A stretch of DNA of 60,160 nucleotides from Candidatus Magasanikbacteria bacterium RIFOXYD1_FULL_40_23. GTDB lineage: Bacteria; Patescibacteriota; Patescibacteriia; Magasanikbacterales; GWA2-37-8. This document shows, piece after piece, positions 47,068 through 49,515 of this stretch (the first letter of the stretch is position 1; every line of letters starts with the position of its first letter). The stretch covers positions 1 to 60,160 of the forward strand of contig MFRA01000001.1 in the NCBI GenBank assembly GCA_001783215.1, given 5' to 3'. Under the pieces are notes generated by a model. That model worked only from the letters and a program-made list of their open reading frames with translations. It made no database searches and was not told where the DNA came from. Both the position numbers and the translations under genes were made by a program.

Positions 47068-47101
47068 ACCCTAAAATTTATAGGTTATCAACACCTATCC
47101 C

Positions 47102-47130
47102 TTGACGGCATAATTAATAAAATGTACAAT
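47102..47130 (+). promoter_or_regulatory. sigma70-like promoter of the transposase
   Basis: TTGACG 47102-47107, 17 nt, TACAAT 47125-47130. Confidence 0.6.
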
Positions 47131-47158
47131 ACAGCCATAAGTTATTAACCCCATAATT

Positions 47159-48025
47159 ATGGCTCAAGCTGATAAGTACAGCATCCGAGATTTAAAGAAA
47201 GACTTCCCAAATGATGATATTTGTTTAGAGTATATCTTTAGCAACTTACACGCTAAGACTTGTTCTTGCGGTGGCCGATATAACCGAGTAAAAGGTAGGC
47301 TCAAATTTCAATGCTCTAAGTGTCGTTTTCAGATTGCCCCGCTAGTAGGTACAATTTTTGAAAAGACTAGCACGCCTTTAACCTTATGGTTCCACGCCCT
47401 CTTTATCTTCTCTAATGCTAAGAGCGGTGTTTCTAGTAAAGAAATGGAAAGACAACTTGGGGTAACTTATAAATGTGCGTGGAGGATTTTAAAACTAATC
47501 AGAGAATCTTTAAAACAAGACGGCCTACCACTTAAAGGCGATGTGGAAATGGATGAAGGGTTCTTTGGTGGTAAAGGCGACGCTGGCAAGAACAATGAAA
47601 TGTTAAGTGTGGTAATGAATAAGAAGACTAAAGTAATCGGGGCAGTAGAACGAAAGGGTAGAATGAGAGCCAAAGCCGTAAAAGATGTATCGGCTAAAAC
47701 TATAGCGACGTTTTTAGACCATAATATCTATCCGATTGATACAAGATTGCTCACTGATAAGAGTAATCGCTATAATCTGGCTTCTTGGGGCTATAACAGA
47801 CAATCAGTTAATCACGGAAACAAAGAATACGTCCGAGGGGACGTACACGTTAATAACGTAGAGAGTTTTTGGTCGCACTTAAAGAGAAGTATTAAAGGCA
47901 CGCACAAAGCTATTTCAAAGAAGCACTTCCAGTCTTACCTTGACGCTTTCGTTTGGCACCGAAACAATCGGTACAACGACAGAGAGCGGTTTGGGACTTT
48001 GCTCGGTGCTTTATTACAGTCTTAA
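47159..48025 (+). CDS. IS1595-family (ISXO2-like) DDE transposase with N-terminal zinc ribbon
   Basis: 288 aa. CSCGGRYNRV...QCSKCRFQ zinc ribbon. DDE_Tnp_IS1595-like body (VEMDEGFFGG...LTDKSNRY...VNNVESFWSHLKR). Confidence 0.88.
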   Translation: MAQADKYSIRDLKKDFPNDDICLEYIFSNLHAKTCSCGGRYNRVKGRLKFQCSKCRFQIAPLVGTIFEKTSTPLTLWFHALFIFSNAKSGVSSKEMERQLGVTYKCAWRILKLIRESLKQDGLPLKGDVEMDEGFFGGKGDAGKNNEMLSVVMNKKTKVIGAVERKGRMRAKAVKDVSAKTIATFLDHNIYPIDTRLLTDKSNRYNLASWGYNRQSVNHGNKEYVRGDVHVNNVESFWSHLKRSIKGTHKAISKKHFQSYLDAFVWHRNNRYNDRERFGTLLGALLQS

Positions 48026-48128
48026 GAGTTGAGAGGAAGGGTGTTGACAAATCGATAGATTTTTGCATATTGTATATTTATATATTTTCATATATAGTAT
48101 ACCTGTAAACAAAAATAAGCAAAAAAAT

Positions 48129-48701
48129 ATGCCACAAGATAACAGTTGGATCATAATATTGATAAGTACGGCATTAGGTGGTTTTGCAGGTTGGGGTGCA
48201 GCAGCGCACAAATTAGGAAGATACGCTCAGATAGCCGATGACTTAAAAGCAAAAGTTGGTGAAATAGAAAAAGAAATTAAATTATTAACAACAAACATTA
48301 CTCAATGCTCCACAAAAATAGACGAGAGGACTTTATCAGCAGCAACAGCACTTACAAAACGTAAAAGCCCTATTAGTCTTACAGATTTTGGAGATGCACT
48401 TTTAAAGAAAAGCGGATCTGATAAATTTGTGCTTGAAAATCAAAGTGAGTTAGTAGAAAAAATTAAAGTAACTAATCCAAAATCTGCATACGACGTTCAG
48501 GAAGCATCTAAAAAGGTAATAAAAGACATGGTAGATGAAGATAAATTTATTTCTCTTAAAGATTATGCATTTAAAGAAGGTATAGAATTAGAAAATATTA
48601 TTCTTGTAATGAGTATTTTCCTTAGAGATGTTGCGCTACCTTTATTGGGTTACAAACCAGAAGATATTGACAAAGATGATCCTGGCACAACAAAGGAATA
48701 G
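48129..48701 (+). CDS. hypothetical N-terminally membrane-anchored coiled-coil protein
   Basis: 190 aa from ATG 48129. TM WIIILISTALGGFAGWGAA, then coiled coil and a globular C-terminal region. Confidence 0.7.
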   Translation: MPQDNSWIIILISTALGGFAGWGAAAHKLGRYAQIADDLKAKVGEIEKEIKLLTTNITQCSTKIDERTLSAATALTKRKSPISLTDFGDALLKKSGSDKFVLENQSELVEKIKVTNPKSAYDVQEASKKVIKDMVDEDKFISLKDYAFKEGIELENIILVMSIFLRDVALPLLGYKPEDIDKDDPGTTKE

Positions 48702-48718
48702 GTAAAATTAAAATATAC

Positions 48719-48752
48719 AAAAAAACAACCAGCTTCCCGGGTTGTTTTTTTG
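48719..48752 (+). terminator. rho-independent terminator
   Basis: aaaaaaacaacc...ggttgttttttt. Confidence 0.75.
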
Positions 48753-48798
48753 TATTCCAACGATTATGCTTAACCCTTGACATATGGTAAAAAAGTCC

Positions 48799-48827
48799 TT
48801 GACGGTCTTTTTTGTTTTTGTTATATT
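48799..48827 (+). promoter_or_regulatory. terminator-loop style promoter
   Basis: Imperfect hairpin aaaagtcc-ttgac-ggtctttt. TTGACG 48799-48804, 17 nt, TATATT 48822-48827. Confidence 0.55.
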
Positions 48828-48832
48828 AATAC

Positions 48833-49006
48833 TGCACAACCAACAAGCGTATTATCTAAACAGAAGTTCTTTGAAAATTTAACCAGTATAAAATGTTGTC
48901 ACATCACCCGCTTGCGGGTTGGTTGTGCAAAACTCAGCCCCACTTCAAAGAACATTCCGTTTAGAGATTTGGGTGGTTGACGACATTTTGCACTGGTTTT
49001 TTGTTT
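48833..49006 (+). promoter_or_regulatory. highly structured leader RNA (candidate attenuator or riboswitch-like element)
   Basis: Three long-range complementarities: 48833-48849/48909-48929, 48854-48875/48944-48968 and 48881-48900/48979-48998. The last is followed by a U-run. Confidence 0.45.
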
Positions 49007-49083
49007 GGCTCTACTAAAGCAGGTTATCATATTAATTGCTTTGGAGGGCTAAATCATTCCCTTAGTTAAGAGGATGTAATCAA

Positions 49084-49272
49084 GTGCAAAGTATGGAAGC
49101 AGAACTCATCTGTCGTCCCTATATCACGCTCAGAAATGGGCGCCGATTATGGGCGCATGAGGTTGGTAAGCAGGCATTCTGTTTTCCCGCGGTACCAGGC
49201 TACTGGGAACGTAGGAAAATAAAAGAAGCAGCCTTTTTACAGCTACCTCTCCCACTACCAGAGCCTAAATAA
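49084..49272 (+). CDS. hypothetical 62-aa protein (GC-rich cassette)
   Basis: GTG 49084 lies 9 nt after AAGAGGA (49068-49074). Alternative ATG at 49093. No motif. Confidence 0.5.
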   Translation: MQSMEAELICRPYITLRNGRRLWAHEVGKQAFCFPAVPGYWERRKIKEAAFLQLPLPLPEPK

Positions 49273-49288
49273 ATAGGCTAAGAATTGT

Positions 49289-49322
49289 CCCCGCTTCCCT
49301 TATAAGGGCGGGGCTTTTCTTT
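49289..49322 (+). terminator. terminator
   Basis: ccccgc...gcgggg stem followed by cttttcttttt. Confidence 0.65.
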
Positions 49323-49464
49323 TTAACACAAATACAAAAAAACGTCAAGACATCACTCACTGGCTAATTTTCCTTTTTTCCCCACATATTTTAAGAAGTT
49401 TTCTGATAAATAAATTATACCATATTGAACGACCCCCTTGTAGGGTCTTTTTTATTATACAGAA

Positions 49465-49515
49465 GTGGATAACTTGCCATTATGCTCTCAAGGAATATGT
49501 GTGAGGTTATCCACA
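49465..49515. promoter_or_regulatory. pair of inverted DnaA-box-like sequences
   Basis: TTATCCACA at 49507-49515 (9/9). AGTGGATAA at 49464-49472, reverse complement TTATCCACT (8/9). Confidence 0.4.

Follow-up and report, generated by a model that had tools for sequence, protein, structure and literature searches.

The question raised by this locus is what an RNA leader of about 175 nucleotides (nt), carrying three long-range complementarities that all cross one another, does ahead of a gene for a small basic protein. Leader and open reading frame (ORF) form a cassette at 48799-49322 of the window, by which we mean the whole analysed stretch of 60,160 nt (positions 1 to 60,160, forward strand, of contig MFRA01000001.1 of the Patescibacteria genome Candidatus Magasanikbacteria bacterium RIFOXYD1_FULL_40_23), and were brought to attention by a sequence-only reading made from the letters and their translations. 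The computational analysis given here establishes that the structured RNA is real and conserved, that it had not been described before and that its interleaved architecture is unusual. As to its function, we tentatively favour a cis-acting leader of modular kind whose long-range terminator is conditional, most likely gating the small gene.

Three interleaved helices in a conserved leader

A sigma-70-type promoter on the plus strand (TTGACG-17-TATATT with a TG extension, 48799-48827), already pointed out in the sequence-only reading, was confirmed with 10 of 12 matches, and its position places the predicted RNA start at about 48833, which is thus the first base of helix A. This helix joins the extreme 5' end of the RNA (48833-48849; UGCACAACCAAC followed by AAGCG) to A', the best-conserved block of the RNA (48909-48929; CGCUU GCGG GUUGGUUGUGCA), in 17 base pairs (bp), 12 perfect plus 5, at -25.4 to -25.6 kcal/mol. 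Helix C, with 20 bp and two one-base bulges (-22.4 kcal/mol), joins 48855-48875 (UCUAAAC. GAA GUUCUUUGAA) to C' (48944-48965), whose end is separated by 4 nt from B'. Helix B joins the 30 nt of 48881-48910 to B' (48970-48998), the putative 5' and 3' halves of a long-range terminator stem, in 28 bp including 4 G-U pairs (-37.8 kcal/mol). Directly after it stands the U-run UUUUUUGUUU (48999-49008), the predicted 3' end of the terminated RNA of ~175 nt and the boundary between the leader and the module of spacer and ORF. The same segments were returned by a repeat finder, in which I10 (12 nt, 100%) is helix A, I15 (10 nt, 100%) and I2 are the inner and outer parts of helix C, and I3 (21 nt, 86%) is helix B. 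Repeats and duplex energies alike bear out the three complementarities at the places first given for them; for helix B the pairing into the U-run was upheld while its length was not, 28 bp being found where 20 had been described.

The plus strand gave the more stable helix in seven of nine comparisons over three genomes, and for helix B it was ahead by 5-7 kcal/mol in all three, the G-U pairs favouring it; the RNA can therefore be taken as the plus-strand transcript. Helix B and its U-run have the make-up of an intrinsic terminator, a stable stem followed by a U-rich tract, also in two relatives (genomes G007 and G084, below), and the terminator-like end claimed for the leader is thereby borne out. 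A simple terminator scanner does not list it because its 58-nt loop is atypical.

With the arms in the order A C B A' C' B', each pair of helices crosses, exactly as had been stated. A chance origin of the helices is excluded, because their energies lie far beyond dinucleotide shuffles: when duplexes between 30-nt windows were compared with those of 150 shuffles, the top three non-overlapping duplexes summed to -83.0 kcal/mol against -34.6 +/- 4.6 kcal/mol (shuffle minimum -45.4), about 10 standard deviations apart, and the third-best helix reached -22.4 kcal/mol against -5.1 +/- 3.1. The sum also exceeds that of any nested fold (-54 kcal/mol). Nucleotide sharing among the helices is nearly nil, being limited to a 2-nt overlap of B with A', and therefore any mutual exclusion would be steric or topological. 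The helix ends converge, with 5 nt from the end of A to the start of C, 4 nt from C' to B' and 0 nt from B to A', and the stem of B closes a loop of 58 nt. Of the claim that the helices are mutually exclusive, the crossing thus holds, whereas the exclusion had been deduced rather than observed, almost no nucleotides being shared. Towards the co-transcriptional folding that had been proposed as a check, growing prefixes were folded, with programs that allow nested folds only and cannot judge the coexistence of crossing helices; in the window and in G084 the fold switched from A-A' once A' was made to C-C' after C' and then to B-B' after B', and in G007 the C-based fold stayed slightly ahead of B-B'. 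A small G(CUUG)C hairpin involving the A' block (48905-48918) is present in the minimum-free-energy folds.

The leader is single-copy in its 1.07-Mb genome. BLAST revealed a stretch of 81% identity in another species of the same genus (G007, C9:3824-4008), and a covariance model built from these two sequences added a third, from another genus within the family (G084, C25:932-756). Searches by BLAST-type comparison and covariance model took in the genus, 100 family-level genomes, 240 from the order and a sample of 400 from the class, giving the leader RNA in 3 of ~600 related small genomes of the candidate phyla radiation (CPR) type; the covariance model returned no copies beyond these three in the family, order or class sets, the class sample yielding only the window's own, and nothing in 44 loci carrying the protein family described below. 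All 24 of the 16-mer matches in viral contigs were due to chance, none fitting the covariance model, and a pattern scan of metagenomes gave only a chance match inside a high-GC coding region.

Across the three genomes the leaders share a mean column identity of 86%. Boxes of the form TTGCGT-N17/19-TATTAT/TAATAT stand in G007 and G084 at the same distance ahead of GCACAACC, a U-run follows B in all three, and the stretch from A' to the start of C' is invariant. Energies range from -20.6 to -25.4 kcal/mol for A, from -22.4 to -25.4 for C and from -37.7 to -43.1 for B, and 95% of the cells in the three-sequence alignment are standard pairs. Nine pairs changed on both sides (four in B, three in inner C and two in outer C), compared with 3.3 +/- 1.4 expected from shuffles and at most two with slid partners; six further pairs of B changed on one side. 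Compensatory changes in helix C are seen in both relatives, and in G084 the outer C arm is shifted over five alignment columns and still pairs perfectly over 9 bp (CUAUAAACU/AGUUUAUAG). Helix A gives no evidence either way in its 7-bp core, GCACAAC, which never varies in the three genomes; the extension of this helix has a different sequence in every genome and in all of them pairs with the invariant A'. Covariation therefore lends good support to B and C, at the level that three sequences can give, which is not statistical proof. The search for homologous leaders and covariation, proposed along with the sequence-only reading, has in this way yielded homologs in two other genomes with B and C covarying, where a lack of both would have counted against that reading.

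Comparison with known families agrees with that reading, which had recognised no riboswitch class in the leader. Rfam 15 at gathering threshold over the whole window passed only a tRNA at 2075-2146; a permissive scan of 48650-49500 gave sub-threshold noise only, mostly on adjoining terminators, with a best score of 26 bits against a cut-off of 48 sitting on the upstream terminator. ARAGORN called no tRNA or tmRNA at the leader. A metabolite riboswitch is typically a widespread aptamer ahead of metabolic or transport genes, which is not what was found: the gene 3' of the leader encodes a mobile-element small protein, and related loci use unrelated leaders. The leader looks unlike a classical metabolite riboswitch because it occurs in only 3 of the ~600 genomes and is swapped as a module.

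An exchangeable module ahead of a small-protein gene

Downstream of the U-run lies a plus-strand spacer (49009-49083) common to the lineage of L017 and L018, two loci of other Patescibacteria, with a Shine-Dalgarno sequence AAGAGGA at 49068-49074. UUUGGCU at 49003-49009, across the module boundary, pairs with AGGGCUAAAU (49044-49053). The promoter scan of the window gave no second promoter-like site between the U-run and the ORF, and no consensus-like promoter was seen by eye in the spacer of the relatives. The cassette closes with an intrinsic terminator of its own on the plus strand (49290-49322), read directly from the sequence as CCCCGCUUCCC-UUAUA-AGGGCGGGG followed by UUUUCUUUUU.

Leader and gene have separate histories. 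Spacer and ORF of the window match L017 and L018, with proteins 73-76% identical (76% for L017), and this DNA homology begins exactly at the U-run, the leaders of L017 and L018 being unrelated in sequence to that of the window. Conversely, contig X12 from a groundwater run of the SRA matches 48799-49006 and diverges afterwards, and the ORFs behind the homologous leaders of G007 and G084 are of a divergent subtype, 26% identical to the window ORF. What is exchanged is thus the whole leader, promoter to U-run, as one module, since homology to X12 stops and homology to L017/L018 starts at the U-run; the leader type follows the host lineage, and spacer and ORF follow another. Judged from these alignments, it appears to be the behaviour of interchangeable regulatory leaders.

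A shared design can be discerned in nine other loci of Patescibacteria type (L014/L098, L017, L018, L031, L038, which is the G082 locus, L057, which is the G038 locus, L060 and L101). Their leaders are unrelated, and each ends in a helix of 26-31 bp (-33 to -47 kcal/mol) with a U-run, 46-191 nt ahead of the start codon. Several of them have an upstream segment that pairs adjoining or over the 3' arm of this helix, namely GAGAGCGUC/GACGCUCUU in L057, AAAGGCGA/UCGCCUUU in L038, CACAGGAGUUUG/CAAGCUCCUGUG in L031, GAACAGCAUUC/GAGUGCUGUUC in L060 and GAGUUCCC/GGGAACUC in L017, which points to one plan across different sequences, a long terminator stem with a crossing upstream partner. As a separate observation, a conserved block of ~55 nt (cgaaaGAyrACCAGCGAwGyA..AATAATAAATGAAAACCTCATA) is present ahead of the leaders at two Patescibacteria loci that otherwise differ and that adjoin integrases (L014 2730-2790; L038/L156 ~2130-2190); it could be an operator, an att-related site or a part of the RNA.

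The ORF (49084-49272, plus strand; core ICRPYITLRNGRRLWAHEVGKQAFCF) is a real gene. The small basic frame of 62 amino acids (aa) first described, with its GTG at 49084 and the AAGAGGA sequence ahead of it, proved to belong to a family of 346 clusters. Starting at ATG 49093 gives 59 aa, as in its relatives when aligned with L018 and L017, and this may be the true start, whereas the Shine-Dalgarno spacing favours GTG 49084. The profile search, which covered 1.84 billion representative proteins, gave the 346 clusters (50% identity) at E <=1e-3 and 30 at E <=1e-10; nearly all members have 40-60 aa and a core of the form [IV][CFY][RT][PA][YWF]ITL[RK]NGxRLYA...GKKAFCF. The window ORF scores 1e-21 against the family profile with a complete core motif and carries the membership motif of this unnamed ICRPYITLRNG family, [IV][CFY][RT][PA][YWF]ITL[RK]NG..[LI].A....G..AF. 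The ORFs of G007 and G084 (ICNA[VI][KR]RNGKLV[FY]) fall below the profile threshold and are only probable members.

No model of the family was found in Pfam, NCBIfam, PHROGs or PADLOC, and a literature search for its motif returned nothing. AlphaFold modelled the window protein as a small beta-sheet with a helix (mean pLDDT 85); Foldseek against the PDB gave no structural neighbour (best E = 1.6), and no endoribonuclease fold was seen. A strain variant from a groundwater SRA run (X9), differing mostly at third codon positions, departs from the window over core codons 9-37, as read from the comparison table, by seven synonymous third-position changes and by Y to F, R to K and R to I replacements, whose new residues all occur elsewhere in the family; these differences are indicative of purifying selection on the protein.

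Members occur in Pseudomonadota, Bacillota, Bacteroidota, Planctomycetota, Chloroflexota and Patescibacteria, and the family extends to prophages and to temperate phages. In the latter, for example Bordetella phage IFTN8 and Microcystis phage MACPNOA1, the gene has the lysis or tail genes on one side and the module with the integrase or repressor on the other. Among ~110 loci, a gene pair for an XRE-type helix-turn-helix (HTH) protein and ImmA/IrrE (Peptidase_M78, capP-like) stands directly upstream in 21-22, an uncharacterised 127-aa protein directly upstream in 28, and a tyrosine integrase nearby in 11. The XRE-HTH, the ImmA/IrrE metalloprotease (PADLOC capP-like, 1.5e-16) and the small protein form a three-gene unit on one strand in loci of Bacillota, Pseudomonadota and viral contigs, including L025, L026, L029, L097, L099 and L100. 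Since the gene sits behind such CapH/CapP-like XRE and ImmA pairs in other phyla, the family seems to be tightly controlled in general. At locus L055 (2839-3105), an ORF fuses the N-terminal part of the 127-aa protein (MDLSGFKPFDFSEGVPYLSV...) to the small-protein core (IYRPYITLRNGRRLYA...), which hints at a functional link of the two proteins or may be an assembly or frameshift artefact.

Readings of the leader

The conditional-terminator reading would work as follows. On a self-contained mobile cassette, the strong promoter would drive the structured leader of ~175 nt, in which helix B, the last and strongest with its 28 bp, would act together with the U-run as a long-range intrinsic terminator, so that most transcripts would stop at the U-run. 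The only gene open to control encodes the basic protein of 59-62 aa, ~75 nt further downstream, and its expression would need read-through, set by the folding of the leader during transcription. Folding would proceed in the order A-A', C-C', B-B', each later helix being said to be more stable, and C (and A) would either block or scaffold the closing of the terminator's 58-nt loop, as can be presumed because C' ends 4 nt before B' and B abuts A'. The trigger would more likely be a host- or phage-lineage-specific factor, protein or RNA, than a metabolite.

Typically, attenuators and riboswitch platforms (trp leader, T-box, PyrR-type) have the same promoter-proximal leader with sequential long-range pairings and a final stem with U-run ahead of the regulated gene. 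Unlike them, the present leader has interleaved helices (A C B A' C' B') with almost no shared nucleotides and a 58-nt terminator loop, carries no recognisable aptamer, specifier, protein-binding repeat or Rfam match, and has a very narrow distribution. Phage antitermination (lambda PR'-6S RNA-tR' with Q; HK022 put RNA) resembles it in the prophage or mobile setting and in the strong promoter followed by a short terminated leader of ~190 nt unless a phage-specific factor allows read-through; the cassette differs in controlling one tiny gene with its own terminator, in a far more structured leader, and in that no Q-like or N-like gene lies near it. The leader is classed as a terminator-containing regulatory leader, with a minority chance that it represents a truly new fold or switching principle.

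Several points weigh against a conditional terminator. Termination, read-through and the 5' end of the RNA are predictions; the usual strand-competition logic of attenuators is absent, since hardly any nucleotides belong to two helices; a 58-nt loop is atypical for a terminator stem and may make it inefficient; and a leaky, unregulated terminator would fit the same anatomy. The covariation, coming from only three full homologs, is suggestive and not statistically decisive, helix A is invariant and hence uninformative, and X12 appears to be without the inner part of helix C. Confidence is held back on account of the predictions, and because no bases are shared and the helix ends converge on one junction.

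This geometry lends itself to a real though somewhat unlikely alternative, in which the leader is a stand-alone small RNA of ~175 nt, a compact pseudoknot around a three-way junction with a leaky terminator and hence abundant RNA and little protein, that works with or counteracts the small protein. In converging within 5, 4 and 0 nt the helix ends show three-way-junction geometry; conservation extends to all three helices, which have almost no nucleotides in common, their sum of -83 kcal/mol exceeds the best nested fold (-54), the block from A' to the start of C' is as invariant as a binding surface would be, and the leader is separable, X12 matching 48799-49006 only and the ORF module of the window being of another lineage. 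Type III toxin-antitoxin systems (ToxIN, CptIN) likewise combine a promoter, a structured or pseudoknotted RNA, an intrinsic terminator that sets the excess of RNA over protein, and a protein gene. They are, however, defined by tandem repeats and a ToxN/AbiEii-like endoribonuclease of ~170 aa, whereas no direct-repeat families were found within the leader, and the 62-aa protein, from a family of 40-60 aa without endoribonuclease fold and well below the size of known type III toxins, has no counterpart in PADLOC, Pfam or the PDB. Moreover, RNA type and protein type are exchanged independently here, and a specific RNA-protein pairing is unlikely, as leaders without relation to each other go with almost one and the same protein (the 76% identical ORF of L017 stands behind a dissimilar one). 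A target in trans is not apparent either: no complementary site was found elsewhere in the genome, where the invariant A' block matches no site on either strand with fewer than 3 mismatches. By rough estimate rather than computation, the linkers of 14 nt (A'-C') and 5 nt (C-B) would strain a full triple-helix structure, and helices of over one turn would need strand threading. That the three helices do form together in one fold, or take turns by purely topological exclusion, we consider doubtful on its own account. A simultaneous fold would mean ~65 bp in helices of 1.5 to 2.7 turns joined by linkers of 5, 4 and 0 nt, and if true would be a threaded, knot-like RNA fold without a described counterpart; topological exclusion with no shared bases would be a new design principle for RNA switches.

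A folding pathway in the manner of hok, in which successive exclusive pairings, one of them with part of B' covering the start region, keep a possibly toxic protein untranslated until processing or refolding, is quite improbable. It draws on the mobile-element context and on complementarity to the start region: B' at 48987-48999 (UUUGCACUGGUUU) is complementary at 11 of 13 positions to 49078-49090 (AAUCAAGUGCAAA), which spans the GTG, and in G007 B' (UUGGGUGGUU) pairs over 10 bp with GAUUACCCAA just ahead of the ATG, while a copy of B and C lying downstream offers C'B' a possible partner. Gultyaev, Franch and Gerdes (1997) reportedly described covariation backing several incompatible helices in hok mRNAs, and hok/sok is also alike in its small gene on mobile DNA with conserved, covarying, mutually incompatible long-range helices. 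In G084 the start-region complementarity nevertheless amounts to 5 bp by eye, a weak match for which chance could account, and the leader helices, unlike those of hok/sok, lie wholly upstream and end in a terminator, the U-run after B suggesting a transcriptional and not a translational role. Neither the hydrophobic membrane toxin nor the cis antisense RNA of a type I system was found in the cassette: the protein is basic and soluble-looking where the hok/sok toxin is a membrane peptide, and the antisense side shows only a weak promoter-like box on the minus strand (49348-49320). Still less probable is a leader-peptide attenuator, in which a ribosome on a mini-ORF of 23-28 codons (23 codons at 48893-48964 in the window leader, plus strand, MLSHHPLAGWLCKTQPHFKEHSV) would decide whether helix B forms. 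Its start codon keeps the same place in all three genomes (ATG in the window and G007, GTG in G084), two compensating indels restore the frame in G007, and the peptide end QPHF(K/N/D)E is kept; yet no Shine-Dalgarno sequence stands before the mini-ORF, in contrast to the strong one of the downstream gene, the central part of the peptide is wholly different in G007, the stop differs in position in G084, and pairing conserves the region anyway, so that an open frame could persist by chance. Hardly credible, finally, is an origin other than RNA, that is, chance inverted repeats or a DNA element such as a miniature inverted-repeat transposable element (MITE), the end of a transposon or a site of recombination. 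The cassette does have an imperfect inverted repeat of 26 nt on its flanks (48798-48823 and 49324-49349), and IS1595-family transposase genes lie upstream in the window and in G084. The leader, though, is single-copy and outside the ends of the insertion sequence (IS; 47085-47100 and 48035-48050), its energies lie ~10 standard deviations beyond shuffles, the promoter and U-run are correctly placed, and the compensatory changes, with G-U pairs that fit only the plus strand, are those of an RNA.

Surroundings of the cassette and wider meaning

Upstream of the cassette, an IS1595-family element occupies 47085-48050 with its transposase gene at 47159-48025 and 16-nt terminal inverted repeats (TTATCAACACCTATCC and GGAAGGGTGTTGACAA, 81% complementary). 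A transposase ~60% identical by eye stands directly upstream of the leader cassette in G084 (L129 1045-1953, minus strand). Two candidate identities for the leader were rejected at this point: it is not a MITE or IS-borne element, being single-copy and lying beyond the IS1595 copy that ends at 48050, and it is not a guide-like RNA associated with IS1595, the IS ends excluding it and the cassette of G007 being without transposase. At 48715-48755, after a gene for a membrane or coiled-coil protein of 191-212 aa, a perfect 16-bp hairpin (AUACAAAAAAACAACC/GGUUGUUUUUUUGUAU) is bordered on either side by A-runs and U-runs and so resembles a bidirectional terminator. A relationship of this 191-212-aa protein to the one preceding the small gene in Bordetella phage IFTN8 was considered and rejected.

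The 26-nt repeat flanking the cassette is T-rich and 81% complementary between 48798-48823 and 49324-49349, and it puts a second copy of the promoter region, TTGACG-N17-TAAAAA, on the minus strand just beyond the cassette terminator. An antisense promoter directed back across the small ORF is one possibility, a coincidence due to low complexity another; the promoter scan gave no consensus-grade minus-strand promoter over ORF or leader. Directly after the cassette of G007 (L012 4338-4445), a tRNA-like sequence with the anticodon loop UAGUAAU, apparently Tyr, and a variable arm of ~30 nt was noticed, which ARAGORN did not call.

Overall, should the leader be a conditional terminator, it would contribute a further RNA control element, from a group that is poorly explored, the Patescibacteria (CPR), and one with an unusual logic, if true, of interleaved non-overlapping helices and a long-range terminator stem. 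The cassette, at ~520 bp, is self-contained and hence directly testable. The locus also flags a large unannotated family of small proteins in many phyla, temperate phages and islands, which is guarded by very different devices across phyla, either XRE and ImmA pairs or structured terminator leaders. This consistent place behind tight regulatory devices suggests a potent or toxic role in lysogeny, defence or the control of mobile elements.

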